Shown here piece by piece: positions 1,436-59,873 of a stretch of 64,000 bases of DNA. The notes under the pieces were generated by a model. That model had not been told where the DNA came from. It did no database searches and saw only the letters and a program-made list of their open reading frames with translations. The position numbers and the translations under genes are program-made. Source of the stretch: Sphingobacteriaceae bacterium (GTDB taxonomy: Bacteria; Bacteroidota; Bacteroidia; B-17B0; Aurantibacillaceae); contig CANKBS010000009.1 of NCBI GenBank assembly GCA_947480015.1, positions 3,255 through 67,254 of the forward strand. Direction: 5' to 3'. Position 1 is the first letter of the stretch, and the number at the start of each line of letters is the position of its first letter.

Positions 1436-3850
1436 GTGCGTGGTACCGATGAAGAACCGTTAGAAAAAGTAAGCATTGGAATCAAAGAAAACTCGAAGTT
1501 TTTCACCAACAGCGATGAAAATGGAAATTACAGCCTAAGTGTTGAAGCTAATAAAATCCTTACCCTTGTCTTTCACGATATCAGTTATGGTCTTACCTCC
1601 TATACCTTTATGGCTAAGCAGGGTGAGTTGATTAAGTATTCACCTATTTTAAAATTTAAAAATGAACTGGGTGAAGTTCAGGTAACCGATTTTAAAAAGC
1701 GTTCGGAAGAGGTAATTGTGATTGATCCGAAAGTGTTGACCAAACTCATTTCTCCAACCGGTAATATTGAAGATGTCATCAAAACCCAAATGGGTGTAAG
1801 CAGTAATAACGAATTAAGTAGCGGTTACAGTGTGCGTGGTGGGAATTTTGATGAGAACCTCATTTACGTCAACGATATTGAAGTATACCGTCCTTTTTTG
1901 GTGCGCAGTGGTCAGCAAGAAGGTTTAAGCTTTGCCAATCCGAACATGGTATCCAACATTAATTTCTCGGCCGGTGGTTTTGAAGCCAAGTATGGCGATA
2001 AGATGAGCAGTGTTTTGGATATCACCTACCGCAAGCCTTTAAAATTCGGAGGTTCGGCATCGGCCAGTTTTTTGGGTGGCAACGCGCAGTTAGAAGGTGT
2101 GAGTAAAAATCGCTTGATAGCCTGGAACATCGGGGCCCGCTACCGCACCAATACCTACCTATTAAAAAGTCTCGATACCCAAGGTGAGTACCGTCCCAGT
2201 GCTATGGATTTGCAAAGTTTTGTGACCTTTGAAGTAAATCCGAAATTACGAATTGAGTTTTTAGGAAACATTGCCAATAACAAATACCTGGTTATTCCTT
2301 CAACCCGCACCACCGATTTTGGTACCGTTAAAGATGCCTTACGTTTGACCATCTATTTTGACGGCCAGGAATTAATGCAGTATATGACCTATATGGGCGC
2401 CGTATCGGCAACATACCGACCGAATGCAAAAACCAAATTAAAATTCATCGCTTCTGCTTACCGTGCCAATGAAGAAGAAATTTACACCGTTAGGGGACAG
2501 TATTTTATTGATCAATTAGAAGCCGATTTAGGAAAACCTAATTTTGGACAGGTGGCGTTTAGACGTGGGGTTGGCACCTTTATTAATAACGGAAGAAATT
2601 ATTTAACGGCCAATGTTATTAATTTAGAACACAAAGGAAGTCGCACCATAAATAAAAACAACGAGGTACTTTGGGGCGCTCGCCAACAGATTGAAAAAAT
2701 AACCGACAAGCTGGGCGAATGGCGCACATCGGATTCTGCGGGCTTTAATGTTCCTTATAGTCCGAATGAAATTAATTTAACCGATGTATTTAAAACCAAT
2801 ATCACTTTACCCAGTTTGCGTTCGCAGGTTTATGCCCAATACAATTATAACAAGGTGTTAAAAGACTCATCTAACTTTAAATTTACCGGCGGTATACGCG
2901 GCAATTACTGGACCGTTAACGAACAAATTCTTATTTCACCCCGTGCTACCATTGCTTTTAAACCCAATTGGAAACGCGACTGGTTATTTAAATTGAGTGC
3001 CGGTGTTTATTACCAACCGCCGTTTTACCGCGAGTTACGAAATTTTGACGGTACCATTAACAAGGATGTGAAGGCGCAACGTTCCATTCACGTGGTACTA
3101 ACCTCCGATCATATTTTTAAAATGTGGGATCGTCCCTTTAAGTTTATTGTGGCCAATTACTATAAGCAACTCAACAGTTTAAACCCTTATGAAATTGATA
3201 ACGTGCGCATTCGTTACTTTGCCAATAACGATGCCAAGGGTTATGTGGTGGGAACCGATTTACGTATTAATGGTGAATTTGTAAAAGGTGTTGAAAGCTG
3301 GGCTACCATTGGTTTTTTAAGAACCTACGAATACTCAAAGGACAATATTCACTATGACTATTTTAACAAAGAAGGTGAAAACATTATTAGAGGCGTAACG
3401 TTTGATCAGGTTCGCACCGATAGTCAGCGTGTTGATCCGGGCTATATTCCCCGCCCTACCAACCAATTGGTAACCTTTGGTATGTTTTTTCAAGATCATT
3501 TACCAAAGTATCCGGGTATTAAATTTAATTTGAATTTACAATTTGGGAGTGGTTTACCATTTGGTCCACCCACACATTTGCGCTGGCAGCAGGTGCTTAA
3601 AATGCCACCCTATCGCAGGGCTGATGCCGGTTTAGCCTATAATATATTAAAAGAGAGCCGTGTCGTAAAACGCAAATCGGCCTTTGATCATTTAAAAGAA
3701 ATGTGGATTTATTTAGAGGTCTTTAATTTACTGCAAGTTCAAAATACGGTATCCTATACGTGGGTGCAAGATGTTACCGGACAGCGTTATGCCGTGCCCA
3801 ATTACCTCACCAATCGTCAGGTGAATGTGCGTTTGCAGATTAAGTTTTAA
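1436..3850 (+). CDS. TonB-dependent receptor with N-terminal carboxypeptidase-regulatory-like domain
   Basis: Plug motifs (YSVRGGNFDENLIYVNDIE, FSAGGFEAKYGDKMSSVLDI), C-terminal aromatic residue; frame extends upstream to a signal-peptide-like stretch near 1349, so the true start is probably earlier. Confidence 0.85.
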   Translation: MRGTDEEPLEKVSIGIKENSKFFTNSDENGNYSLSVEANKILTLVFHDISYGLTSYTFMAKQGELIKYSPILKFKNELGEVQVTDFKKRSEEVIVIDPKVLTKLISPTGNIEDVIKTQMGVSSNNELSSGYSVRGGNFDENLIYVNDIEVYRPFLVRSGQQEGLSFANPNMVSNINFSAGGFEAKYGDKMSSVLDITYRKPLKFGGSASASFLGGNAQLEGVSKNRLIAWNIGARYRTNTYLLKSLDTQGEYRPSAMDLQSFVTFEVNPKLRIEFLGNIANNKYLVIPSTRTTDFGTVKDALRLTIYFDGQELMQYMTYMGAVSATYRPNAKTKLKFIASAYRANEEEIYTVRGQYFIDQLEADLGKPNFGQVAFRRGVGTFINNGRNYLTANVINLEHKGSRTINKNNEVLWGARQQIEKITDKLGEWRTSDSAGFNVPYSPNEINLTDVFKTNITLPSLRSQVYAQYNYNKVLKDSSNFKFTGGIRGNYWTVNEQILISPRATIAFKPNWKRDWLFKLSAGVYYQPPFYRELRNFDGTINKDVKAQRSIHVVLTSDHIFKMWDRPFKFIVANYYKQLNSLNPYEIDNVRIRYFANNDAKGYVVGTDLRINGEFVKGVESWATIGFLRTYEYSKDNIHYDYFNKEGENIIRGVTFDQVRTDSQRVDPGYIPRPTNQLVTFGMFFQDHLPKYPGIKFNLNLQFGSGLPFGPPTHLRWQQVLKMPPYRRADAGLAYNILKESRVVKRKSAFDHLKEMWIYLEVFNLLQVQNTVSYTWVQDVTGQRYAVPNYLTNRQVNVRLQIKF

Positions 3851-30240: not shown

Positions 30241-31317
30241 ATGGCCGGAAATTCGTTTGGTACCTTATTCAAATTAAGCACCTTTGGTGAAAGTCACGGC
30301 ACCACCATTGGTGGCATCATAGATGGTTGTCCCGCCGGATTAAAAATCGATCTTGGCTTTATTCAAACTGAACTCGACCGGCGAAAACCCGGACAATCAC
30401 ACATTAGCAGTGCCAGAAAAGAAAGCGATAGCGTTGCGTTTTTATCAGGTATTTTTGAAGGACTCACAACGGGTACTCCCATTGGTTTTACCATTAAAAA
30501 CGAAGATCAAAAAAGCAAAGATTATTCACATTTAAAAGAGGCTTACCGACCTTCGCATGCTGATTATACCTGGGAGAAAAAATTCGGATTGCGCGATTAT
30601 CGCGGTGGTGGCCGAAGCAGCGCCCGTGAAACGGCTTGCCGCATTGTAGCCGGTGCCATTGCAAAATTACTTTTAAAACAACAGGGGGTTAGTGTAGAGG
30701 CTTTTGTAAAACAGGTTGGCTCTATAAAACTAGATAAAAATTTTGATGCGCTGGATCTCTCATTAACCGAAAGCACGATCGTGCGATGTCCGGATGCAGC
30801 CCTAGCCGCTGAAATGATCACCTATATTGAAGATATAAAAAAACAAGGCGATAGTGTTGGCGGGATCATTCAGTGTGTGATTAAAAATGCGCCCATAGGT
30901 TTGGGTGAACCGGTATTTGATAAGGTACCTGCCCTACTCGCTCAGGCCATGCTTAGCATTAATGCTGTAAAAGGTTTTGAGCTAGGTTCGGGTTTTGGGA
31001 GTGTGCATTTTAAAGGCTCTGAACTGAATGATGTTTTTGTAAATGAAAACGGCATCAAAACCAAAACCAATAACAGCGGCGGTGTGCAAGGTGGTATCAC
31101 AAATGGCATGCCCATTTATTTTAACGTAGCCTTTAAACCGGTGGCAACTATTATGCAGAGTCAGCAAACATTGAACACCAAGGGAGAAGAAATAACTTTA
31201 CAAGCCGGTGGTCGGCACGACCCCTGTGTATTACCCCGTGCAGTGCCTATAGTTGAAAGCATGGCAGCCCTAGTCATGGCCGATTTGATGATGTTAGCAA
31301 GATGTAACCGAATTTAA
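30241..31317 (+). CDS. aroC: Chorismate synthase
   Basis: [27 protein letters not shown] signatures. Confidence 0.96.
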
Positions 31318-31463: not shown

Positions 31464-32882
31464 TTAAGCCAAAGCGTTATTAACAGTGAGTTTCACCATC
31501 CTTTCAGAGTAAATATTTTTTGGCGAATTTTCTGTTTTCGCCAAATTTTCTTCATTTTTTTCTTCAAATTCATCAAAATTTACTTGTCTAAAAACACGTT
31601 TTTCAGGGTCTGCATCAAACTTATCTAACTTGGCAATGTACTTAAATGTCGTGGTCAATTCTGTGTGTAAACATTGGGCAGATATTTCCTGTATGTCCCA
31701 TCTTTCAACTTTATACAAATAAAGTGCTCCAGTAGCTTTTAAGCAATAAAAATTATGTAGAGTAGTAAATTCCTTACTGTAGCCCAGTTCGTTTCTTAAA
31801 ATATCGTTCCAGAGGTTAGAAGCCCACATGCGGTTCCTAAGATGTTCCCCCTTCCTTTGACGAAATGCTTTAGAACTTTTGTTTGGTCTTGGTCTAAAAG
31901 TTGGAGGGAACAATAGTTTCTCGGGTTGCATTGGGTCATAGTTATTGGTTGATATTAAATATTCAATCACATGATTAGGAATGCTAATAGTACCCGACTG
32001 ACCATTTTTAACAATGCTGGAGTATACTTCGATATTGTAGTTCTTTGCGTTCTTTTTTACATTAATACACTTTAATTTTAAAATCGTGTCGCCACGCAGG
32101 AGACCATAATACATTAACATCGCAAATCCGAAGAGCTCCTTGTACTTTCGTTTTGTCTTTTGCTTCAAGTGATGCATAATTTTCTTGTAATCTTGATTTG
32201 CCAAAGGCATGTTTTTATTTTTGTCATTGCTTTTAACCCTAGAAGCTTTGGTTACCGGATTAACGGGCAACAATTGACTATAGGCATTGAAAAAAGCATG
32301 TATCTTTGACCGATAGGTTTTTCGGGTATTGTCTGACCAATCCTTTCGATATTTTGCCCAGTTTGCAAATACTTCATTACAAATGCCCTCTGTCATATCT
32401 TTTATAGTCAATTCCTTTAGCCCTGCTTTACCATATTCATCTTGCAAAGAATCTTTAAAAGCATCCAAGGCATTGAAATATAGGTCTTGGTTGGAGATAC
32501 TTTCGTTTGTCTGATAACGCATCTGCACATATTCATCAATCAGGTTTGTGATTGGGATGAATTCCGCTGAGCGTCTACGTTTTAATACTGCTTTCCAGTT
32601 TTTCTCATTAATTCCCTTGTCATACTGACCTGAGACAATATCTTCTGCGACTTTAGGTAAAATATTGTTATCTACATATTCTGTCATTGCTTTTTTACTG
32701 CCTTGACAATGTTCTCTGAGTTGCTCAAAGCCGTGAAATTGACAATAAGTACCAATGTTTCTTATTTTACCTACAAACATTGACCCTTTGATATGGTCAA
32801 ATGCACCATAGTAAATGTAACAATGGTATGCTTTTCGTGAAAATTTAAAAGTTGGTTGTTTGAATGTTTTAATATTTTTCAT
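31464..32882 (-). CDS. int: Tyrosine recombinase / integrase (divergent)
   Basis: YYGLLRGD (Arg), VKNGQ (Lys), YCLKATG at the HxxR position, QCLHTELTTTFKY (His and nucleophile Tyr); adjacent to attL. Confidence 0.85.
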   Translation of the reverse strand: MKNIKTFKQPTFKFSRKAYHCYIYYGAFDHIKGSMFVGKIRNIGTYCQFHGFEQLREHCQGSKKAMTEYVDNNILPKVAEDIVSGQYDKGINEKNWKAVLKRRRSAEFIPITNLIDEYVQMRYQTNESISNQDLYFNALDAFKDSLQDEYGKAGLKELTIKDMTEGICNEVFANWAKYRKDWSDNTRKTYRSKIHAFFNAYSQLLPVNPVTKASRVKSNDKNKNMPLANQDYKKIMHHLKQKTKRKYKELFGFAMLMYYGLLRGDTILKLKCINVKKNAKNYNIEVYSSIVKNGQSGTISIPNHVIEYLISTNNYDPMQPEKLLFPPTFRPRPNKSSKAFRQRKGEHLRNRMWASNLWNDILRNELGYSKEFTTLHNFYCLKATGALYLYKVERWDIQEISAQCLHTELTTTFKYIAKLDKFDADPEKRVFRQVNFDEFEEKNEENLAKTENSPKNIYSERMVKLTVNNALA

Positions 32883-35377: not shown

Positions 35378-35496
35378 AGCTCTATCGTTTTTTCTATTAA
35401 TACTTTTCTTTCTAAACCGAGTGGGCGAATAGTGATTACTTTACCTATTAGCTCCTCAAGCATTTTATTTGCTACTATTTTTCGTTGTTTCGCCAT
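35374..35496 (-). CDS. Small 40-aa ORF (MAKQRKIVANKMLEELIGKV...), absent from the ORF track
   Basis: ATG at 35496 after an A-rich leader; TGA overlaps the next ATG (ATGA coupling). Confidence 0.5.
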   Translation of the reverse strand: MAKQRKIVANKMLEELIGKVITIRPLGLERKVLIEKTIEL

Positions 35497-35579
35497 TTTA
35501 TATTTGTTTTTAATGTTTTAACGGATTCGATTATAATTTGGTTACAGAATTTTCAAACTTTATTTTTTTTTATTTTGGG

Positions 35580-35611
35580 CGATTGGCAGAAGCCTAGTCC
35601 GACTATTCGTA
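35580..35611 (+). repeat. Copy 1 of 32-bp motif CG(A/C)TTGGCAGAANNCTNNTCNGN6CGTA
   Basis: Identical spacing in four copies (35580, 37348, 38672, 41511). Confidence 0.8.
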
Positions 35612-35912
35612 ATGGTTGATTAAGCATTTTTATAGACTAAACAATTCTAAAAAATAATGTTGTCAAGTATTACAGATAATTATCTACGCAAGATATTTTG
35701 ACAGAAGAATTTTTTTCCTTTATACTGCTCTTGTATAAGAATGTATTGGGATTCGCAGTTCCTGTAAAATTATTTTTACAAAACCTTGACATTTTAAATA
35801 TTACCCTTTATTTATGTAGGACTAGGTCAAGTAGTTTTAAACAGAATTTTTAATCCTGATGCTGAGTAGGTGCTTGACCCACTGAAAGGCAATCAGGATT
35901 TTTATTTTAATC

Positions 35913-37076
35913 ATGTGTTATGAAATAAATCTTTATGAATCAGTAAAAAAACCAAAAGTAAAATCCACAATTACAACAGATGCTCTTTTTGAAATTATCC
36001 GCAGTGGCGGTAGTAATTTAGAATTAATAAATAAAGCTCGCAATCTGGGAAAACAGCACGTTGAATATCAAGATATAAAAACTAATCTTCCAGCCGTCAC
36101 GTGGAGTTTCCTGTTTGAAGGTTACAAAAAAGACAAGAACATTATAAACAGCACCGGGCTAATTTATTATGATATAGATGTGGCACTGACAATGAACTTG
36201 AATACAGATTACATTTTTGCAAAATACCAATCACTTTCAAATGTTGGCTCCACAATAATCGTGAAGGTTTCCGGAGTAACAATAAATAACTTCAGTGCAA
36301 CCTATTGTGCTATTGCTAATAAATTGGGAATAATTGACCTTATAGATAGCAATGCTTCGAAGAGAACCCAATTTAATGTGATTTCTTATGACCCAAATAT
36401 TTTTACAAATAATGAGTCATTTTGCTTCAGTGCAGAAACAATGCCTGAATTTGAAGAGCCTAAATTAAATACAGCCAATGAAAATCAGAAAAATGTAAAA
36501 TGGAGGTACGACAATTATGCCGATTATTGCAAAGAAAATGACACCCAAGAATATGAGTTTGGAGTGCCTGTTGTTAGCCTCTATTTACCCTCAACCATTA
36601 AAAATGGAAAAAGAAAACATACTCTTTTATCTTATTGCAACAATCTCGTTCTGCTAAATCCAATGCGTTCCTTTGGTGAGGTCTACACTCACTTATTAGA
36701 ACGAAATTCAGAGAAATGTACAGAGCCATTAGACTCAAATGAAATCAAAGACATAGTAACTTCCATTTTCAAATACAAAAATGAAAACAAATTAAAATTT
36801 AAATATACACGTACGAAGAAAATATTTTATGGAAGAAAAAGTGGACTAACAGTTAAAGAAAGACAAAGGGAAGCCAGAAAAACTGTTGGCTGTTGGCAGA
36901 GAAACAAAACAAAAACTAAAATTTACAATGCAATAGAAAGATGGGATTCAAATAAGAAAATAACAATTAAAGAAGTTAGTCATCTAATAGGTATGTCAGT
37001 CAGAACGGTAAAGACATATTGGATTGAGTTCAAAGAGTTTGTTAAGGAAGAAAATGAGAATAAAAAGTGCAGTTAA
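35913..37076 (+). CDS. Replication/primase-like protein: BT4734/VirE-N-like domain + PriCT-like domain + C-terminal HTH
   Basis: LPAVTW...STGLIYYDID, KYQSLSNVG; GKRKHTL...PLDSNEIKDIVTSIFKY; ITIKEVSHLIGMSVRTVKTYW. Confidence 0.7.
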   Translation: MCYEINLYESVKKPKVKSTITTDALFEIIRSGGSNLELINKARNLGKQHVEYQDIKTNLPAVTWSFLFEGYKKDKNIINSTGLIYYDIDVALTMNLNTDYIFAKYQSLSNVGSTIIVKVSGVTINNFSATYCAIANKLGIIDLIDSNASKRTQFNVISYDPNIFTNNESFCFSAETMPEFEEPKLNTANENQKNVKWRYDNYADYCKENDTQEYEFGVPVVSLYLPSTIKNGKRKHTLLSYCNNLVLLNPMRSFGEVYTHLLERNSEKCTEPLDSNEIKDIVTSIFKYKNENKLKFKYTRTKKIFYGRKSGLTVKERQREARKTVGCWQRNKTKTKIYNAIERWDSNKKITIKEVSHLIGMSVRTVKTYWIEFKEFVKEENENKKCS

Positions 37077-37347
37077 CTGTTATGTATTTATTAAATAGGA
37101 AACATATAACACTTGATTGCACCTTTTTTAAATGCTAATAAAAACAAGTACTTATAAATTGCTTCATTTTTTTTGTGGAATTTTTTTTGGGAAACCAAAT
37201 CAATTGGTTGAATTAAAATATTTCAAAATTAGGTTTCGATTGTATATAGGTCTGTTCAAACTTTTGGAGCCATTAGTTTTTAGAGCTAAAATTAGATACG
37301 AGAATAGCCCCCCTATTTAGGCTCCAAATTAAGGGACTTACGTTCTT

Positions 37348-37379
37348 CGATTGGCAGAATTCTGTTCTGACAAGCCGTA
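37348..37379 (+). repeat. Copy 2 of 32-bp motif
   Basis: CGATTGGCAGAATTCTGTTCTGACAAGCCGTA. Confidence 0.8.
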
Positions 37380-37449
37380 TATAACCCAATTAAAAAAACA
37401 CAGTTAATCCAGAGCTCCCGGAGATGGAGCTGGTTTGAAAAACGGCTCG

Positions 37450-37944
37450 TTAACTTTTCATCAAATCATCTATCTTTCTTCTCTCATCCTCATTAAAAAT
37501 ATTAAACTCAATATGTCGACCTGTCTTAGAAGCGATAATCACTTGTGAAGTTTTTTTGCCGAACATTTTTAATAGAAGTCTATCTGTTATAGTAGACCCG
37601 AATAAAGCATCCCAAAAGGAAAAGAAAATAATGTATCCACCAAACCCCGCAATGCCTGCGAAAACAATAGAGGTGTAGGTAAAGAATCTTCCAATATCTC
37701 CTGTCAGTCCATTTATCGCATAGCCGATGCCGCTCCACCCAAAATAAAGTGCTAAACCGATGGCTCCAAACCTGAATGCATAATTCCAATCCGAATATTT
37801 GAGAACCCTTGCATCAACAATATTAATTCCCGCAAAATCACTTTTTTCTATAACAGTTAAAGTAAATGGTTTCAAGCACTTGTATATATATTGCGAATCC
37901 TCTATAATCAATTCACCAGAAAGAAATTGAATTTTTTCTTCCAT
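37450..37944 (-). CDS. Hypothetical membrane protein (two TM helices)
   Basis: Hydrophobic Gly-rich segments AFRFGAIGLALYFGWSGIG and IVFAGIAGFGGYIIFFSFW. Confidence 0.7.
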   Translation of the reverse strand: MEEKIQFLSGELIIEDSQYIYKCLKPFTLTVIEKSDFAGINIVDARVLKYSDWNYAFRFGAIGLALYFGWSGIGYAINGLTGDIGRFFTYTSIVFAGIAGFGGYIIFFSFWDALFGSTITDRLLLKMFGKKTSQVIIASKTGRHIEFNIFNEDERRKIDDLMKS

Positions 37945-37947
37945 AAA

Positions 37948-38325
37948 TTATTCTTTGATTGAATGGTAAACACTACCCCAACCACTCAAATAGAGCTTTT
38001 TTCCCATCGTTGACAATTCTGTTTTTTTTCCGTTATGCAAATCTATTTCCCATGCATCATGTTTTTTATTGAACTCACCAACCGACCATGTTCCATTATC
38101 TTCTCCATATGTCGGTTGACCCGATAAATTGGTGGATGTCCGCCAAGTTCCATCGTTAACGAATATGGTTGTTTGTTCTCCTCCCATATTATCTGTTCCA
38201 TTAAAACAGCATCCAACCAATTTAGTTGAAACTTCTTCTTTTGACCATTTCGATTGTGGACTGCCACAAGAGATGATGAAAAGTGTAACCACAGTTAAAA
38301 GCGAGATTATTTTAGTTGTTTTCAT
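37948..38325 (-). CDS. Hypothetical lipoprotein
   Basis: MKTTK signal, lipobox IISC. Confidence 0.72.
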   Translation of the reverse strand: MKTTKIISLLTVVTLFIISCGSPQSKWSKEEVSTKLVGCCFNGTDNMGGEQTTIFVNDGTWRTSTNLSGQPTYGEDNGTWSVGEFNKKHDAWEIDLHNGKKTELSTMGKKLYLSGWGSVYHSIKE

Positions 38326-38364
38326 AATTAATATTTTTATGGCTAATGTAGAATAAAATTGTGT

Positions 38365-38384
38365 TTACGGCAAATTTGTCGTAA
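38365..38384. promoter_or_regulatory. Palindromic operator candidate for the adjacent XRE regulator
   Basis: TTACGGCAAA/TTTGTCGTAA, 20 bp with one mismatch, between divergent starts. Confidence 0.6.
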
Positions 38385-38396
38385 GGAAATTTACCA

Positions 38397-38633
38397 GTGT
38401 TCGCCACTTTTAAGGTGGTGAAGTACTACAAATCTGAAATAGCCAAACTTGGTAAAAAAATCAAGAAAATGAGGGAGTCCAAAGGGATGACCCAAGAAAA
38501 CTTATCCGATTTATGTCAAGTGGATATTAGAACAATTCAAAGATTAGAAAAGGGTGAATTTGGCTCTGGTTTACACCTAATTTACGCGTTGGCAGATGCC
38601 TTTGAAATATCGGTTCCCGAACTTTTGACATAA
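38397..38633 (+). CDS. XRE-family HTH transcriptional regulator
   Basis: IKKMRESKGMTQENLSDLCQVDIRTIQRLEKG; true start may be a few codons downstream. Confidence 0.9.
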   Translation: MFATFKVVKYYKSEIAKLGKKIKKMRESKGMTQENLSDLCQVDIRTIQRLEKGEFGSGLHLIYALADAFEISVPELLT

Positions 38634-38671
38634 TATTTAGCCTGTAGATAAGGTATACAACTAAGTCTTAA

Positions 38672-38703
38672 CGATTGGCAGAAATCTGTTCAGTAAAATC
38701 GTA
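38672..38703 (+). repeat. Copy 3 of 32-bp motif
   Basis: CGATTGGCAGAAATCTGTTCAGTAAAATCGTA. Confidence 0.8.
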
Positions 38704-38851
38704 TAAGTTTAAATAAAAAATTTTGATGCCCACCTGTGAATTCTGGAGCCGGAGCTAAAACTGAAACTGATTAAAATAATCTTGCTTTATTTGAAAACTA
38801 ATGGCAATTTAGCTTATGAAATAAAACTTGAAAAAAAACTTCACTTAAGTA

Positions 38852-39970
38852 TTGAAATTAATCTATAAAACTCAAATTATGTCATTAACAAAAGTTCATC
38901 TCAAAGTAACAGAAATACTTCTAGACCCAAACAATCCAAGATTTGCAGATGTTTCAGATGATAGTCTAAATGTTCCAGAAGGTAGATTTATTGACAAAGA
39001 AGTTCAAGATGATGCATTTAAAAAAATGATGCATCCCAAATTTGACGTAATCACTCTGGCAAAGTCAATAGAGACAGTTGGTTTTATACCGGTTGACAAT
39101 ATTGTTGTGAAATTAGTTGAAGGAACAAATTCATACGTTGTTGTTGAAGGGAACAGGAGAGTTACGGCACTACAATACTTGATAAGAGAATATAAAAAAG
39201 GTCAATCAATACTCACTAAGGAAGCTGTTGATTTAATCGCTGAGATAGATGTTTTACAGGTTAACGATACTTTGGCAAATTCAGAATACTTTGGAATGGT
39301 TATTCAAGGTATCAGAAATGTCTCGGGCATAAAAGAATGGGATGCTTTCCAGAAGGCGCAATTCATTAATAATATGATTGAAAAAGGCAAAGACCCTCAT
39401 ACGATTTCAAAAATGCTTGGAATGCAGGTAAAAGAGGTAAATCGATATTATAAAACTTATTGTGTGATGAATCAATTCAAACAAGATGAGGAGTATGGGT
39501 CATATTTTAAAAACTCCTTCTTTAGTCATTTTGATGAAATTCTCAAAAAGCCTGTATTAAGAACCTTCTTCGGTTGGAATGATGATAGCTATAAATTTGA
39601 AAATCTCACAAATATTCGCAGGTTCTATGAATGGATGCTTCCAGATGAAGAAGGAAATGTTACTTTTTCAGATGCAAGAGACGTAAGATTGCTTTCGGAC
39701 TTTACATCCGAACAAACTGCATTAAATTATTTGGATGACAAGAATTTTCAAAAGGCAGTGAATTACATTGAAAATAAAAATTTTAATAAAGTTGTTTCAT
39801 TTGATGAATGTATGTCTAAAATAAGACTCGCAATTGAAGCATTTAAAAATATATTGGGCGAAGGTTACGAGAATTTGTTGACAGATGACGATGTTATCTA
39901 TCTTGAAAATTCAATTTCTGAAATGAATGGGAAGCTTGCGAAAATCAAGAAATTGAAAGTAAGTGAATAA
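38852..39970 (+). CDS. ParB/Srx-like N-terminal domain protein
   Basis: LLDPNNPRF, YVVVEGNRRVTAL (GxxR ParB motif), WDAFQKA; likely start ATG 38879. Confidence 0.78.
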   Translation: MKLIYKTQIMSLTKVHLKVTEILLDPNNPRFADVSDDSLNVPEGRFIDKEVQDDAFKKMMHPKFDVITLAKSIETVGFIPVDNIVVKLVEGTNSYVVVEGNRRVTALQYLIREYKKGQSILTKEAVDLIAEIDVLQVNDTLANSEYFGMVIQGIRNVSGIKEWDAFQKAQFINNMIEKGKDPHTISKMLGMQVKEVNRYYKTYCVMNQFKQDEEYGSYFKNSFFSHFDEILKKPVLRTFFGWNDDSYKFENLTNIRRFYEWMLPDEEGNVTFSDARDVRLLSDFTSEQTALNYLDDKNFQKAVNYIENKNFNKVVSFDECMSKIRLAIEAFKNILGEGYENLLTDDDVIYLENSISEMNGKLAKIKKLKVSE

Positions 39971-40697
39971 GGAGCTTTTATTTCAATCAGTAAAATCATT
40001 TAATGTAGAAAAAGTCGAAACAACTACTTTTTTAATTCAGTATTTTACATTAATTGGTCTTAATCGTTTTAAGGCTTCTGAAGAAGCAGAAAAGAGAATA
40101 AATACATTTATCGATTTTATCAATAACGAACTTATCCGTTGCTCTAAAGTTGGAGAAGTTTGTATTTTTCAAACATCATCCAATAAAAATGTAACAAACT
40201 TCAATTTAAATTTCTTTTATGTTCAAGAACTTTGCAAAGAACTATATTCAGGAATTGATACTGTAGAATTTGAAGTCGCTTGTTCTAAAGTCCTAAAAAA
40301 CAACTTGAAAATTGAAAATGCTAATGTAACAAAAGCTAAAGGAGATGGTGGTTATGATTTCTATGGAAGCTATTTAGCGAAAGGAGGTAGTGATAATTAC
40401 ACTCATTCCGTAATTGAAATTTTCGGTCAATCGAAACAATATGCTGGAAATATTTCCAGACCTGAAATAGAAAAATTTTTAGGCTTTATTCAAAAAAACA
40501 ATCAAAATCGGCACTACAAACCTACTATATATATTTTTGCGTCGACTTCGGATTACTCTAATGAAGCATTACAGCTAGCAAATTCTTTTGGTATTATATG
40601 TTGGACAGGAATGCAGATAGCTTCCTTTATTTTTAATTCTTTATCATTGAGAATAGAAAATCCAAAAGAAGCGTTATTAAATTATATAAAAAAATAG
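39963..40697 (+). CDS. Mrr-like restriction endonuclease
   Basis: VTKAKGDGGYD...GQSKQY (D...QxK), FASTSDYSNEA, GIICWTG. Confidence 0.8.
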   Translation: MNKELLFQSVKSFNVEKVETTTFLIQYFTLIGLNRFKASEEAEKRINTFIDFINNELIRCSKVGEVCIFQTSSNKNVTNFNLNFFYVQELCKELYSGIDTVEFEVACSKVLKNNLKIENANVTKAKGDGGYDFYGSYLAKGGSDNYTHSVIEIFGQSKQYAGNISRPEIEKFLGFIQKNNQNRHYKPTIYIFASTSDYSNEALQLANSFGIICWTGMQIASFIFNSLSLRIENPKEALLNYIKK

Positions 40698-40737
40698 ACT
40701 TAAAATCGAAACAAAATTTTAGTCAAATAAAAACTCT

Positions 40738-41487
40738 ATGACAGAAGCACAGAAATCACAAGCAATGTCAATTATTTCACTTGGGACAACCAAAATTGTG
40801 AACAATTATAGCGAGAATGCCTTACTACTAAATTCGTGTTTTGTCGCTAAAAATAGATACGAAACATTGACTGAGACTAATGGTTTATCTACAATTAGAA
40901 ATATACCAACTAACCTCCGACTTGAAAATGAAATTGACGTGCAGTATTCTAATTCGGAACTTGTTGAAAATTATAGAAATGAACTTCCTAATATAATTTT
41001 CAAAAATTATATTATTGTTTCAGTTTCAAATGTTGACGCAACCTTGGAAGACTTATATGAACATCTTTTAAAAATTTATGAAGCAAACATTAATGAAAAT
41101 GAAGTTGAAAGGCGAATAAGAAATGCTTGGACAAATGATGGGATGCTATCTTACCTAATTGACCCACTTAAAAGTAATTTACAAAAACCAAACGGATTAG
41201 AAACAAGTTTTACTGAAGCACTGATGCGTTATTCGGAACTACGAATACTTCGTCACACTCTATTACATACTAATGGAAAACTGTCTGAAAAAAACAAGCA
41301 AAAACTTGAAAACTATTTAAATTCAACACCAGATGAGAGAAAAAATCTTGCGTTAATTAACAGCCCTTTATTCAATCAAGATTGGCAGATTACACTCAAT
41401 ATAAATCAAATCTTAGCAATTAGAAGGTATCTTTATGATTATCTGATGTATTTATTTCACTCTATAAATGAAAGAACTGTTATTTAA
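40738..41487 (+). CDS. Putative HEPN-domain protein
   Basis: Helical protein with ELRILRHTLLHTNG (R-x4-H) and N-terminal IIVSVSNVDATLED. Confidence 0.6.
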   Translation: MTEAQKSQAMSIISLGTTKIVNNYSENALLLNSCFVAKNRYETLTETNGLSTIRNIPTNLRLENEIDVQYSNSELVENYRNELPNIIFKNYIIVSVSNVDATLEDLYEHLLKIYEANINENEVERRIRNAWTNDGMLSYLIDPLKSNLQKPNGLETSFTEALMRYSELRILRHTLLHTNGKLSEKNKQKLENYLNSTPDERKNLALINSPLFNQDWQITLNINQILAIRRYLYDYLMYLFHSINERTVI

Positions 41488-41510
41488 AACTTTGCTTTAA
41501 TTCAATTAAT

Positions 41511-41542
41511 CGCTTGGCAGAATCCTAATCCGATTTTCCGTA
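41511..41542 (+). repeat. Copy 4 of 32-bp motif
   Basis: CGCTTGGCAGAATCCTAATCCGATTTTCCGTA. Confidence 0.8.
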
Positions 41543-41655
41543 TATCCATAAATCTCAATAAACCGGACTCAACCTGTAATCCCAGCCGGCGTTTTTCCCG
41601 GTGGAGCTAGAATCTTCATTGTAACAAAGCTCAAAGTATTTTCGTATAATACACT

Positions 41656-42132
41656 ATGGCAAGAAAATTTCACTTGCATCTAACTAACAAACTGACAAAT
41701 CACTTCATAGCTCGCTATTTCCATGGCAACCTCCAAGGAATGGCAATTATAGTGCTAACAAAGTCGAATATTGAGCAAATAAGGAGTGTTAAGAAACTAA
41801 TTGAGATAGCTAAAACACTTGAACCTTCAATTCAATCCATGAAAAGTGTTCTTCAAAACGAAAAGAAAATCTTCCCCTACCCGATTAATACAGACCCTAA
41901 AGAAATTATTGATTCAAAAGTGTTTTGTAAAGAATTCAGAACAAACAAAGCAGTGTGGAAATTGGAACCGTTCCAATGGCTAGATACTGAAAACCAATTT
42001 ATAATCGAAGAAATTTTTCTGATTTGCGAAAAAGACACATTTAATTTCGAGATTTACTTTTATCCTGAAAATGGAATCACCGAAACAAAAATGCTAGTCG
42101 AGAGAATTCCTTATTATCAAATCGGATTATGA
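41656..42132 (+). CDS. Hypothetical protein
   Basis: 158-aa ORF, start uncertain. Confidence 0.55.
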   Translation: MARKFHLHLTNKLTNHFIARYFHGNLQGMAIIVLTKSNIEQIRSVKKLIEIAKTLEPSIQSMKSVLQNEKKIFPYPINTDPKEIIDSKVFCKEFRTNKAVWKLEPFQWLDTENQFIIEEIFLICEKDTFNFEIYFYPENGITETKMLVERIPYYQIGL

Positions 42133-42247
42133 CTGTGCGAAAAAGGTCTAAAAAACAAGGTGTGTTTTTACCAGTAAAATCAAGCTTTCTTAATTTTATT
42201 TTCAGTGTTCTAAAAACGAGTGTTAATCTAACAGCAAAACTACAATT

Positions 42248-42823
42248 ATGAAAACAGCTATTTATGTCCGATGTTCAACTAAGACTAAAGGTCAAGACGT
42301 CGAGAACCAATTAATTCAGCTTCGTACATTTTGTAAGAGGAGCAACTACGAAATCACAAAAGTATATGAGGACTATGAAAGTGGCAATGACCTAAATCGA
42401 AAAGGTTTTAATGAAATGCTTAATGATGCCCGGAAAAGAAAATTTGAACTTCTTGTATTTTGGTCGCTAGACCGATTCTCCCGCTCTGGAACAAGACAGA
42501 CCATCCACTACCTTCAACAACTGGAGAGTTATAATGTTGTCTACAAAAGTTTCACTGAACAATATATTGACAGTGCCGGAATCTTTAGTGATGTTATCAT
42601 CAGCATTTTAAGTACCCTCGCGAAACAAGAAAAGGTCAGGCTAAGCGAGCGAGTAAAAGCTGGTTTGGATAAGGCAAGAACAAAAGGGAGAGTTGGAGGG
42701 AGACCGAAATTAAATCAAGATGTTATTGAGAAAATTAAAGAAATGAAGAGCCAAGGCTACTCAAATCGGCATATTGGACGTGAACTAAAGATTGGGAATT
42801 CAACAGTGGGACAATATTTATAA
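42248..42823 (+). CDS. Small serine recombinase (resolvase/invertase) with C-terminal HTH
   Basis: YVRCST (catalytic Ser), NQLIQL, SLDRFSR, RVKAGL...GRVGGRP, HTH tail. Confidence 0.93.
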   Translation: MKTAIYVRCSTKTKGQDVENQLIQLRTFCKRSNYEITKVYEDYESGNDLNRKGFNEMLNDARKRKFELLVFWSLDRFSRSGTRQTIHYLQQLESYNVVYKSFTEQYIDSAGIFSDVIISILSTLAKQEKVRLSERVKAGLDKARTKGRVGGRPKLNQDVIEKIKEMKSQGYSNRHIGRELKIGNSTVGQYL

Positions 42824-43874: not shown

Positions 43875-44441
43875 TCAGACCCGCAATCTTGAAAATTGAA
43901 CTCGTTTCCTAAGCTGATTCTTAATCCTATTCAGCTTTGAATTCAATGCAGAAACACTTGTATTTAATTCATGAGCCAATTTTTTTTGACTGAACTGTTC
44001 AAAATAGTAAAGGTTTATTAAGTTCTTGTCTTTGGGGTTTAATTCACTAATAATCGCCTCTAAATATTTAGACTGTTCTTCTTTGATTAATGATGTTTCG
44101 AGGTCTTCTACATCGTTACATTTAATATTTAAATTGTATGGCTCTTCACGGGAGACAACTAAGCTCTTGTTCTTTTTAAATCTATACAAATCAATTAATG
44201 CGTTACGAGTTATTCTTTCCACCCAAGGCTTCAGGTGATAGTCTGGTTTAAAAGTGTAGAGCTTGTCAAATACTTTTACAGTTAAATCATGAGCCAATTC
44301 AATTGACTCTGCATCATAAATTGAACAATAATAAAGTTGATTTTTTATTATACCTCGAATTAGTTTATATAGTTGCTCAGAGGCTCTGTTATTTCCGTTC
44401 AAAGCCAATTCAATAACTTCCATTTCGTTTTTTATCTTCAT
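43875..44441 (-). CDS. ECF-type RNA polymerase sigma factor
   Basis: Region 2 (DLTVKVF...WVERITRNALIDLYR) and region 4 (LINLYYFEQFSQKKLAHELNTSVSALNSKLNR). Confidence 0.85.
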   Translation of the reverse strand: MKIKNEMEVIELALNGNNRASEQLYKLIRGIIKNQLYYCSIYDAESIELAHDLTVKVFDKLYTFKPDYHLKPWVERITRNALIDLYRFKKNKSLVVSREEPYNLNIKCNDVEDLETSLIKEEQSKYLEAIISELNPKDKNLINLYYFEQFSQKKLAHELNTSVSALNSKLNRIKNQLRKRVQFSRLRV

Positions 44442-44445
44442 AATT

Positions 44446-44904
44446 CTATTTTAAAAATTCATATATTTTTTTTGGTAGTAAAATCCTACATGTGTCTTGT
44501 TCAACGGATACTGTAATAGTCTTCAGACAAATGGTTGCATCAATAATTGCTTCATAATTCAGTATAAATTCTGATACAGATTTTTTGTTCACGGATTTCA
44601 ATTTCTTCTGGAAATTTAGATTGGAGTTATTATAAAGCTGAAGGATTTTTTCATCTCCATGCTCTTCCCTACTCTTGGCACTTGTAAAAACCAGTAAAGA
44701 TTGTGGTTTACCCGGAAAATTCATTTTAAGAGCCGAAAAAAAAGAAAGAAAATCAGTGCCATAAATTAGTGCCGGATTTGAAAAGGATTTTTCTGAGGCT
44801 CCAGTATCCAAAATCAAATTGGAATTTGAAACGCTTGCTGTCTGCTTTTGCCCGCAGAAACTAAGACTAAGAGCCAATATTATTTTACAAACAACCTTCA
44901 CCAT
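44446..44904 (-). CDS. Hypothetical exported protein / lipoprotein, co-oriented with the ECF sigma gene
   Basis: N-terminal hydrophobic stretch ending LSFC; 4-bp gap to the sigma gene. Confidence 0.6.
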   Translation of the reverse strand: MVKVVCKIILALSLSFCGQKQTASVSNSNLILDTGASEKSFSNPALIYGTDFLSFFSALKMNFPGKPQSLLVFTSAKSREEHGDEKILQLYNNSNLNFQKKLKSVNKKSVSEFILNYEAIIDATICLKTITVSVEQDTCRILLPKKIYEFLK

Positions 44905-45018
44905 GTAATATACGGGGAAATTTAGACCTATGTTACAGTCAGGAGCCAGTCGTTAGATTTCTGTAGGTCTGTAGAATATTTTTTCCTATTTTGGCAATGC
45001 TAAAATCCAAATAAAATA

Positions 45019-57605: not shown

Positions 57606-57621
57606 ATGGCATTCGATATTG
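57606..57621 (+). other. attR: element-supplied aconitase start (ATGGCATTCGATATTG), core 57615-57621
   Basis: Direct repeat of 31427-31442 differing only at two synonymous third positions. Confidence 0.75.
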
Positions 57622-59873
57622 AAATGATTAAGAAGGTATATGCCGAAATGCCTTCAAAAGTAGAAGCAGCGCGCAAGTTAGTGGGTCGTCCATTAACGCT
57701 TACCGAAAAAATACTCTATGCGCATTTGCATCATGATCAAAAATCCGGAAATTTTGAACGCGGAAAATCATATGTTGATTTTGCGCCGGATCGTGTAGCC
57801 ATGCAGGATGCAACCGCGCAAATGGCTCTGTTGCAGTTTATGCAGTCGGGTCGCCCTAAAGTAGCTGTGCCATCAACGGTACACTGTGATCACTTAATTA
57901 CCGCTAAAAATGGCGCCAGCGATGATTTGGCTTTTGCTAATAAAGAAAGTAAAGAGGTATTCGACTTTTTAGGTTCAGTATCTAATAAATATGGTATTGG
58001 TTTCTGGAAACCAGGTGCTGGTATCATTCACCAAGTCGTGCTTGAAAACTATGCCTTTCCTGGTGGAATGATGATTGGTACCGATTCACACACCGTTAAT
58101 GCCGGTGGCTTAGGTATGATTGCCATTGGTGTTGGTGGTGCCGATGCCTGCGATGTTATGGCTGGTTTGGCCTGGGAATTAAAAATGCCAAAACTGATTG
58201 GTGTAAAATTAACCGGGAAATTAAATGGCTGGACAGCTCCTAAAGACGTGATCTTAAAGGTTGCCGGTATTTTAACCGTAAAAGGTGGAACAGATGCCGT
58301 AGTAGAATATTTTGGTGAAGGTGCCACGTCGATGAGCTGTACCGGTAAAGGAACCATTTGTAACATGGGTGCAGAAATTGGCGCTACCACTTCTACCTTT
58401 GGTTATGATGATAGCATGAGTCGTTACTTAAAAGCAACGGGACGTGCTGATGTGGCCAGCTTAGCAGACACTGTAAAAGAACATTTAACTGCAGATGCTG
58501 ACGTTTATGCTAATCCGGCTAACTACTTCGATCAAGTCATTGAAATTGATCTTTCAACCTTAGAGCCACATGTAAACGGACCTTTTACTCCAGATTTAGC
58601 GACTCCTATTTCAAAATTAAAAGAAGCGGCTTTAGCCAATGGCTGGCCTACTAAAATTTCGGTTGGTTTATTAGGTTCTTGTACCAACTCATCTTACGAA
58701 GATATTTCACGTGCCGTGAGTTTGGCTAAACAAGTTTCTTCGAAAAATTTAAAAGCTAAAGCTGAATACCTGATTAATCCGGGTTCAGAACAAATTCGCT
58801 TCACCATTAAACGCGATGGTTTTTTAGATGTGTTTGACCAAATAGGTGCGAAAGTATTTACCAATGCCTGCGGCCCATGCATTGGGATGTGGGACAGAAT
58901 GGGTGCTGAGAAACAAGAAAAAAACACGATCATCCATTCATTCAACCGTAATTTTGCCAAACGTGCCGATGGTAATCCGAATACCTTTGCCTTTGTTGCC
59001 TCTCCTGAAATTGTAACAGCAATGGCTATTGCAGGTGATTTAACCTTTAACCCGCTTACCGATTCATTAACCAATGAAAAAGGTGAACAGGTGAAATTTG
59101 ATGCGCCAAGTGGTGATGAATTGCCAACGAAAGGTTTTGCAGTGGATGATCCGGGCTTTCAGGCTCCGGCCGCCGATGGCAGTCAAGTAACTATTAATGT
59201 GTCACCAACAAGCGATCGTTTACAGTTATTAGATCCTTTTGCTTCATGGGAAGGCGTTGATTTAAAAGGATTAAAACTTTTAATAAAGGCCAAAGGCAAG
59301 TGTACAACCGATCATATTTCAATGGCCGGACCTTGGTTAAAATTTCGCGGACATTTAGATAATATTTCTAACAACATGTTAATTGGTGCGGTGAATTTCT
59401 TTAATGAAAAAACCGACAGCGTAAAAAATCAATTGAGTGGCGTTTACGAAGCGGTTCCAAAAGTACAACGGGCATATAAAGCACAAGGCATTGGTTCGAT
59501 TGTAGTGGGTGATGAAAATTACGGTGAAGGTTCTTCGCGTGAACACGCAGCTATGGAACCACGCCATTTAGGTGTGCGTGCTGTGTTGGTGAAATCGTTT
59601 GCCCGTATTCACGAAACTAATTTAAAAAAGCAAGGCATGTTGGGTTTAACTTTTGCCGATAAAGCCGATTACGAAAAAATTCAGGAAGATGATAGTATTG
59701 ATATTATTGGCTTGAACAGTTTTGCACCCGGTACATCCTTAACCTTGGTTTTTAATCATGCCAATGGAACTAAAGATGAAATAATGGCTAACCATACCTA
59801 TAACCAGCAACAAATTGAATGGTTTAAAGCCGGTGGTGCTTTAAACATTATTAGAGCAAGTATTAAAGCATAA
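57606..59873 (+). CDS. acnA: Aconitate hydratase (mitochondrial-type)
   Basis: [52 protein letters not shown]. Confidence 0.96.

Follow-up and report, generated by a model that had tools for sequence, protein, structure and literature searches.

Group 4 sigma factors of the extracytoplasmic function (ECF) type recognize promoters such as that of Bacillus subtilis SigW, TGAAAC-N16-CGTA. Phage-encoded sigma factors have middle and late promoter classes of their own, and in the middle promoters of phage T4 a MotA box replaces the −35 element. T4-type phages also carry promoter-early stem-loop (PeSL) cassettes, repeated units of a promoter and a stem-loop that lie in variable regions, and related genomes differ by insertion, deletion and replacement through recombination between these cassettes (Arbiol et al. 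2010, PMC2839356; Comeau et al. 2014, PMC4122927). We analysed a 64,000-nt stretch of the genome of a Sphingobacteriaceae bacterium (GenBank assembly GCA_947480015.1, contig CANKBS010000009.1, positions 3,255 to 67,254 of the forward strand; hereafter the window), in which a chromosomal island carries four copies of a short motif that we call P1. Our analysis indicates that P1 is probably a promoter of the alternative-sigma type, joined to a leader cassette and heading the modules of the island. The feature belongs with alternative-sigma promoters and with promoter–stem-loop cassettes, both of which are already known.

The four copies are described by the pattern CG(A/C)TTGGCAGAA-NN-CT-NN-TC-N-G-N6-CGTA, which fits the plus strand of the window at 35580, 37348, 38672 and 41511 with no mismatch. 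They share 20 invariant positions out of 32, differ by no indels and are all intergenic (4/4). One hundred dinucleotide-preserving shuffles gave no match to the pattern, even at two mismatches, and the 3.77-Mb assembly holds no further copy under the two-mismatch pattern or under looser regular expressions. A weight matrix trained on 14 copies from phage G185 and metagenome contig L042 (both described below), and on none from the window, recovers the same four sites alone when the whole genome is scanned, with scores between 22.9 and 42.2 bits (Table 1). No other site in the window exceeds 8 bits, and no other site in the genome that has CGT at the −10 position exceeds 12 bits.

P1 consists of CGnTTGGCAGAA, 16 nt and CGTATAtC, that is, two conserved halves at a fixed spacing. 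An alignment of 22 copies from the window, from metagenome contigs L043, L045 and L042 and from G185 is free of gaps, and its information is concentrated at positions 1–12 and 29–36, with none in the flanks. Positions that the search left free are conserved as well: C1 (22/22), G2 (21/22), A12 (18/22), G22 (22/22), A23 (19/22), T33 (19/22), A34 (20/22) and C36 (16/22). P1 shares with ECF promoters a fixed spacing of 16–17 nt without indels, which a variant in phage G186 keeps, and a −10 element with a CGT core, of which CGTA itself was forced by the search pattern and T33, A34 and C36 were not. The spacer holds a conserved TCnGA and a short, imperfect dyad of 5 bp, CAGAA-N5-TTCnG. The hexamers TTGGCA and TATAtC lie 21 bp apart, and P1 therefore does not have sigma-70 geometry; a generic promoter scan did not call it. 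A sigma-54 promoter was rejected since GG is present but no GC follows 12 nt downstream, replication iterons since the copies lie kilobases apart, and parS or integrase arm sites since there is no palindrome and the motif is kept in sibling elements without the ParB-like gene.

We refer to a P1 copy with its tail as a unit and number the units 1 to 4 from left to right. The tails of units 2–4 share an A-rich stretch followed by CTGTnAATyC...CCGG...GGAGCT, with GGAGCT at 37426, 38751 and 41603. The sequence-only reading of this DNA had listed the four 32-bp plus-strand copies with their 20 invariant positions and lack of indels, the A-rich stretch and GGAGCT after copies 2–4, and the lack of copies outside the island; each of these descriptions agrees with the searches above, and the weight-matrix scan that it suggested returned the four window sites without scattering across the genome. 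It had also called the sequence upstream of the copies unrelated, which holds among units 1, 3 and 4 and has to be softened for units 2 and 3, as these are weakly alike over about 20 nt.

The searches at family and order level covered the same 185 genomes, in which we found scattered single matches alone, at about the level of a reversed-pattern control. A strict 29-nt pattern gave ten single matches from unrelated phyla in a collection of genome contigs, which is about the chance expectation, none in a collection of viral contigs and one in a collection of metagenome contigs. A literature search for the motif string returned nothing but unrelated primer matches. The single metagenome match, L042, bears five copies within 1.9 kb (1–1881), the densest P1 array seen. 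Three are direct copies and two are inverted partners, arranged back to back and pointing outward, and the contig also holds two copies of a second motif, P2 (see below), ahead of cargo genes, and two small open reading frames (ORFs) of no assigned function. We also looked for decayed inverted partners 5′ of the copies in the window and rejected them, there being no minus-strand site above 8 bits.

Phage G185 (518,809 bp, with direct terminal repeats) was found by a looser pattern that contains the two conserved halves only. Its 11 P1 copies all lie in one region of about 51 kb across the genome ends (1–47,100 and 514,900–518,809), with three of them in back-to-back pairs. One copy, at 46970 on the minus strand, is situated 27 nt ahead of the start codon (ATG) of the operon to which the ECF-like sigma gene of the phage belongs, and seven other minus-strand copies face against plus-strand operons. 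A crude scan flags a terminator 71–98 nt downstream of five of these seven, and a sixth has a clear hairpin by eye. In phage G186 (212,632 bp) a variant, GTGACAGAA/GTGACAGGA…CGTATAtc, forms 15 divergent pairs, arranged back to back, between 54 and 94 kb. The copies that point towards a gene are followed by P2 48–115 nt downstream and then by the gene in 13 of 15 cases; the opposite copies have P2 downstream in none of 14 and a terminator ahead in at least 9 of 14. In these regions of both phages each operon junction repeats a common module, composed of a terminator, a P1 unit of about 100 nt pointing antisense, a divergent P1, a leader, P2 and a gene. The partners of a pair lie 10–20 nt apart, which suggests two independent sites and not one symmetric site. 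As far as can be judged from the sequences, this pattern of orientations is the behaviour of promoters and not of recombination sites. A comparison of the host genome with both phages gave no spacer-like or other telling match.

The short units of the phages bring up the alternative that the whole unit of about 100 nt is a gene for a structured or small RNA that includes the motif, which would then be conserved as RNA. The phage units do reach a terminator after about 100 nt, and their tails share short elements (CCAGGGAAATTCC in G185, AGGATTTTAC and GTAAAATCC in G186), as do the tails in the island (CTGTGAATTCTGG). Rfam gives no match at the gathering score, and at E ≤ 1 it gives CRISPR-DR47 alone, which is not at the motif. 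Base pairs within the motif are not preserved from copy to copy, RNAalifold finds no consensus structure in 20 phage tails, and the island tails fold with z-scores of −1.2 to +1.4 relative to shuffles. Conservation in two blocks of constant spacing that begins abruptly on the 5′ side is moreover what is expected of a DNA signal upstream of a transcript, and we regard an RNA gene with a conserved RNA motif as extremely unlikely. The short P1 units in G185 and G186, as their sequences stand, could be a family of small RNAs. The CRISPR-DR47 match (39921–39959, plus strand) is a single copy whose score of 28.4 bits (E = 0.046) stays below the gathering score of 39; it is situated inside the end of the ParB-like gene and is probably due to chance.

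The second motif, P2, reads tGTAACA-N16-CGTATAnTACA and has the −10 box and the spacing of P1 with a different upstream box. In the island it precedes the operon of the 158-aa ORF and the resolvase and also the sigma operon, ending no more than 9 nt ahead of both start codons. Since CGTA and ATG are separated by 9 nt, the mRNA from P2 is predicted to be leaderless or nearly so. P2 is kept at both equivalent sites in L043 and L045. G185 has 30 copies (26 in the first 60 kb, 27 on the plus strand), most with the motif start about 35 nt ahead of an ATG, and G186 has 61; in both phages almost all copies are co-directional with the genes. P2 has everything that characterizes an ECF promoter, namely the AAC core, the CGT core, the geometry and the position ahead of the sigma operon. 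Judged by these features, it is likely a canonical ECF-type promoter, autoregulated and giving leaderless mRNA, and the best candidate for the site at which the sigma factor would control its own operon.

To relate the island to the phages, 28 window proteins, from the integrase through the aconitase, were compared with G185 and G186 by tblastn, and the sigma factor is the only one with a clear match in both. A homologue of its 152-aa partner occurs in G185 only (355,398–355,775, 36% identity, far from the phage sigma gene). A weak resolvase-like match of 77 residues is found in G186 at 118.6 kb, outside the motif region. The sigma gene of G185 is located at 40,660–41,706; both phage sigma genes encode an N-terminal extension of 160–190 residues, and in sigma region 2 the island and phage proteins are well conserved. 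A sigma homologue accompanies P1 in all five sources of at least 6 kb.

The −35 box of P2 is the same in the island, G185 and G186, and by this conservation the sigma factor appears firmly tied to P2. The −10 box that P1 and P2 have in common argues that the same sigma reads P1. Several observations weigh against this assignment. P1 has no AAC core, as GCAGAA within CGnTTGGCAGAA occupies the −35 position, and with 12 nt its upstream box is longer than a usual −35 element. The window sigma operon is preceded by P2 and not by P1, and the argument from autoregulation thus points to P2; the island has one sigma gene for two promoter classes. The sigma factors of the island and G185 are 22% identical and their P1 boxes are the same, whereas those of G185 and G186 are 37.5% identical and their boxes differ. 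Hence the box does not follow sigma region 4 in its variation and may be read by a different factor; the dyad in the spacer likewise suggests a bound regulator. In addition, units 1, 3 and 4 have long leaders, with 148–301 nt before the first ORF or about 75 nt before P2, and these fold no more stably than shuffles. We consider the case for P1 being read by the island's own sigma factor to be evenly balanced.

Some of these points would also fit a scheme in which the upstream box and the spacer dyad form an operator that overlaps a minimal promoter and is bound by a repressor or activator other than a sigma factor, encoded by the host or by the element. The 12-nt box, the conserved spacer positions G22 and A23, the dyad and the failure of the box to co-vary with sigma similarity are all in line with an operator, and TTGGCA and TATAtC, taken as hexamers, would have between them an over-long spacer, such as is found in activator-dependent promoters. 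However, no candidate regulator is common to the island and the phages at the tblastn level, the XRE gene of the island is missing from L043 and from the phages, and the box together with the CGTA half is not found elsewhere in the host genome. Such an operator is compatible with promoter function and does not exclude it; as an explanation in its own right we find it unlikely.

Sibling elements were reached through five homologues of the sigma factor and two of the 158-aa protein, all on metagenome contigs, and orthologues of units 2, 3 and 4 are present in L043 and L045. The window and L045 are homologous up to 38755, in the GGAGC that closes the unit 3 tail, and again from 41505, 6 nt short of unit 4; in the case of L043 the homologous stretch begins at 41503. 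Between units 3 and 4 the window carries the genes for the ParB-like protein, the Mrr-type nuclease and the 249-aa ORF, L043 carries McrBC, headed by the unit 3 orthologue, and two other genes, and L045 carries a 112-aa ORF, likewise headed by the unit 3 orthologue, and an AlbA_2 gene. A module of 1240 bp (37429–38668, two small ORFs and the XRE gene) is missing from L043, with breakpoints at 37428 and 38669; there, units 2 and 3 lie just 19 nt apart at 3476–3610, forming an 'empty' junction in which the head of unit 3 is decayed (CAATAGGCAGAA). Unit 4 is the best illustration of what is kept. In three orthologues P1 is conserved at 30 of 32 positions, the hairpin CCAGCCGGCGTTTTTCCCGGTGGAGCT at 27 of 27 and the P2 boxes throughout, the sequence 5′ of P1 is unrelated and the stretch from the hairpin to P2 has diverged. 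Promoter and leader are the sole sequence conserved between unrelated modules, and the units therefore mark where homology starts and stops. The PeSL-like coincidence of breakpoints with cassettes is thus observed at 38755, 41505, 41503, 37428 and 38669, with one variable slot that has no cassette. In L045, positions 763–824, after the 112-aa ORF, are 80% identical to window positions 38586–38647 and represent a relic of the XRE 3′ end, which by its sequence is taken to be the scar of an older rearrangement at this junction.

The same observations raise the possibility that the units are attC-like or res-like sites at which an integrase or serine recombinase of the island captures and excises cargo. 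All four copies point in the same direction, the cargo of the siblings differs exactly between units, L043 has its empty junction, and a resolvase gene lies just 3′ of unit 4 and is conserved together with it. Against this, tblastn finds no homologue of the island integrase or resolvase in G185, which has 11 copies, and in G186, with its 15 pairs, the resolvase-like match is weak and lies outside 54–94 kb. The divergent pairs in the phages and L042 sit at ordinary operon junctions. The units have no palindromic half-sites around a core, and no long dyad or crossover core beyond the imperfect 5-bp dyad, and across the island and the phages the motif does not go together with a cognate recombinase. 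The right-hand breakpoint of unit 3 varies, being 38755 in L045 and 38814 in L043, and cargo blocks comprise two to four genes in either orientation without an internal site. The slot from the resolvase stop to the 3′ end of the sigma operon (42824 to about 43760), which has no P1 unit at either edge, varies too: it contains a 113-aa ORF in the window, ORFs of 515 and 237 aa in L043 and ORFs of 101 and 282 aa in L045. We judge dedicated recombination sites to be very unlikely and infer instead that recombination probably uses the units as stretches of shared sequence.

The sequence-only reading had offered two interpretations, recombination or cassette-junction sites that build a modular cargo array, and promoters of the island's ECF sigma. 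Part of the first survives: sibling homology starts and stops at the units, L043 has an empty junction, and the suggested comparison of siblings does reveal cargo exchange at the motif, within the limits set by the variable breakpoint of unit 3 and the motif-free slot. A site-specific mechanism is disfavoured by those same two features and by the presence of the motif in G185, where homologues of the island recombinases were not detected. The second interpretation is borne out in kind, as P1 is a directional signal of two halves that heads operons or terminated short transcripts in the phages and occurs together with an ECF-type sigma, the sole protein clearly common to the island and both phages. 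Its assignment to the island ECF factor is weakened, because P2 and not P1 precedes the sigma operon in every relative, the AAC core is lacking and the box does not track sigma similarity.

The island is flanked by genes for chorismate synthase (30241–31317) and aconitase (57606–59873) and has a GC content of 33%, compared with 39% in the flank. Its features are collected in Table 1. The three kinds of unit in the window are P1–leader–gene (units 1 and 3), a short-transcript unit (unit 2) and P1–P2–gene (unit 4). P1 copy 1 is separated by 301 nt from the primase/rep-like gene downstream. P1 copy 2 points at two small membrane or lipoprotein genes of the minus strand, which converge on it 3′ end first; the stop codon of the convergent gene beyond the unit 2 tail is at 37450–37452, and that tail folds with −10.8 kcal/mol (z = −1.2). 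The XRE gene follows two small genes, a 113-aa ORF lies between the resolvase and sigma genes, and no other sigma gene is present in the island. To the right of the sigma operon are a type I restriction–modification system and more defence-type genes. PDB sequence searches with the 152-, 158- and 236-aa proteins gave no match, PHROGs gave nothing for the small island proteins, the window contains no tRNA genes, and a search of the whole genome found no SusD/RagB homologue, which leaves the Bacteroidota assignment of the sequence-only reading without confirmation from this marker.

Table 1. Coordinates of P1, P2 and neighbouring features in the window
Feature	Position	Strand	Remarks
Integrase	31464–32882	−	Leftmost gene of the island, followed by small ORFs and a DUF5131 gene
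P1 copy 1 (CGATTGGCAGAAGCCTAGTCCGACTATTCGTA)	35580–35611	+	Weakest copy, 22.9 bits; CGTAatgg replaces CGTAtatc
Primase/rep-like gene	35913–37076	+	Weak PriCT_1, BT4734-like_N; phrog_18375, phrog_695
P1 copy 2	37348–37379	+	37.2 bits; orthologue in L043 at 3476
Unit 2 tail	37380–37433	+	A-rich; hairpin CCAGAGCTCC-cggagat-GGAGCTGG (37409–37433), then TTTG
P1 copy 3	38672–38703	+	28.5 bits; heads the ParB-like/Mrr/249-aa operon
Unit 3 tail	38704–38756	+	A-rich, CCTGTGAATTCTGGAGCCGGAGCT; L045 homology stops at 38755
Cargo: ParB-like (PDC-M38A / PD-Lambda-5_A type), Mrr-type nuclease, 249-aa ORF	38852–41487	+	3′ of P1 copy 3
P1 copy 4	41511–41542	+	42.2 bits
Unit 4 tail	41543–41608	+	Includes CCAGCCGG-cgtttttc-CCGGTGG-AGCT at 41582–41608, 27/27 identical in three orthologues
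P2 before 158-aa/resolvase operon	41621–41646	+	GTAACA-N16-CGTA(TAATACA); ATG 9 nt past CGTA
158-aa ORF and small serine recombinase (resolvase family)	41656–42823	+	3′ of P1 copy 4 and P2; kept in siblings
ECF-type (group 4) sigma gene	43875–44441	−	TIGR02937 3.6e-21; phrog_1740 2.4e-21
152-aa protein	44446–44904	−	Lipoprotein-type signal (…LSLSFC); co-transcribed with the sigma gene
P2 before 152-aa/sigma operon	44911–44936	−	Conserved in L043, L045, L040 and L041

Two further promoter-like sites are found around P1 copy 1. A near-consensus sigma-70-type site (TTGACA-17-TATACT, 11/12) lies at 35698–35726 on the plus strand, between P1 copy 1 and the rep gene, and by its sequence could be a second, housekeeping promoter for rep. 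On the minus strand and divergent to P1 copy 1, GTAACC-N16-CGTT at 35545–35520 is situated 23 nt ahead of the start codon (ATG at 35496) of the leftward operon; from its similarity to P2 it may be a weaker promoter of that type for the genes on the integrase side.

We propose that the upstream box CGnTTGGCAGAA, the fixed-length spacer with TCnGA and the −10 box CGTATAtC form a core promoter at which RNA polymerase with a phage-type ECF sigma would start transcription, by our inference about 6–8 nt past CGTA. The transcript would open with an A-rich leader, followed by a GC-rich hairpin. From unit 1 the primase/rep gene would be expressed, from unit 2 a short RNA ended by its hairpin and facing the two convergent genes, and from unit 3 the defence-type operon. 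Transcription from unit 4 would run into P2, from which the 158-aa protein and the resolvase would be expressed on a leaderless mRNA, and P2 would serve the sigma operon as well. The units probably also act as patches for homologous exchange of cargo, as PeSL cassettes do.

A bolder extension, which we regard as doubtful, is that the island is wired into the transcription programme of giant phages as a satellite-like or infection-sensing element. P1 and P2 would then be the promoter types used by a phage clade with genomes of about 200–520 kb, both copied by the island and placed ahead of its genes for replication, for defence, for the recombinase and for the sigma factor. The sigma factor of an infecting phage, or a factor that binds the P1 box, would switch on replication and defences of the island, the island sigma could misfire phage promoters, and the promoter–leader cassettes would double as patches for cargo transfer between phages and islands. 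If the island does respond to transcription factors made by a phage, it would be a straightforward and testable example of infection turning on defence or satellite genes. It is this link from the island to giant phages that deserves to be pursued. More generally, an uncharacterised family of phage-type ECF sigma factors gains its first candidate target promoters, in two classes with one −10 box. A chromosomal island with defence-type cargo shares its putative promoter cassettes with two giant phages, although the sigma factor is the sole protein that it clearly has in common with both, and the idea of promoter–stem-loop cassettes as exchange points for cargo is extended from T4-type phages to an integrative island.

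Among the known systems, integron attC sites resemble the units in being repeats of the same orientation between swappable cargo. They differ in that the units have no imperfect palindrome of the attC type and no IntI-type integrase beside an attI site; the cargo here comprises several genes in both orientations, and the motif also occurs in G185, which has no detectable homologues of the island recombinases.

With ECF promoters, P1 shares the two halves, the fixed spacing, the CGTA −10 element, the 16-nt spacer when counted from GCAGAA and a sigma gene nearby, and it departs from them in lacking the AAC core, in its 12-nt box, in its conserved spacer positions and in its absence from the front of the sigma operon. 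P2 fits this class in full, including its position before the sigma operon. The combination of two promoter classes with one −10 element and different upstream sequences, in phages that encode their own sigma factor, recalls phage sigma systems and T4 middle promoters, and by this analogy the two-class arrangement suggests a temporal or conditional switch. Unlike the T4 case, no MotA- or AsiA-like factor was identified, the 152-aa protein co-transcribed with the sigma gene resembles a lipoprotein and not a transcription factor, and the system is also found on an island that is not a phage.

PeSL cassettes are short, repeated and intergenic, and combine a promoter with a GC-rich stem-loop. Units 2 and 4 have the same composition, a promoter-like motif with a GC-rich hairpin, and the phage copies are followed by hairpins or terminators, so that the likeness extends to the whole unit where the motif is taken as an active promoter. 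PeSLs concentrate among variable, non-essential genes and coincide with breakpoints, just as cargo is exchanged here between the tail of unit 3 and the head of unit 4 and is missing from the empty junction of L043. PeSL promoters, however, follow the host sigma-70 consensus and are early, whereas P1 is of an alternative, ECF-like type and occurs with a sigma factor encoded by the element. Mini-circles have been shown for PeSLs. The units also differ from PeSLs in often forming divergent pairs, in standing in tandem with a second promoter class and in their presence both in giant phages and in an integrative island of a chromosome.

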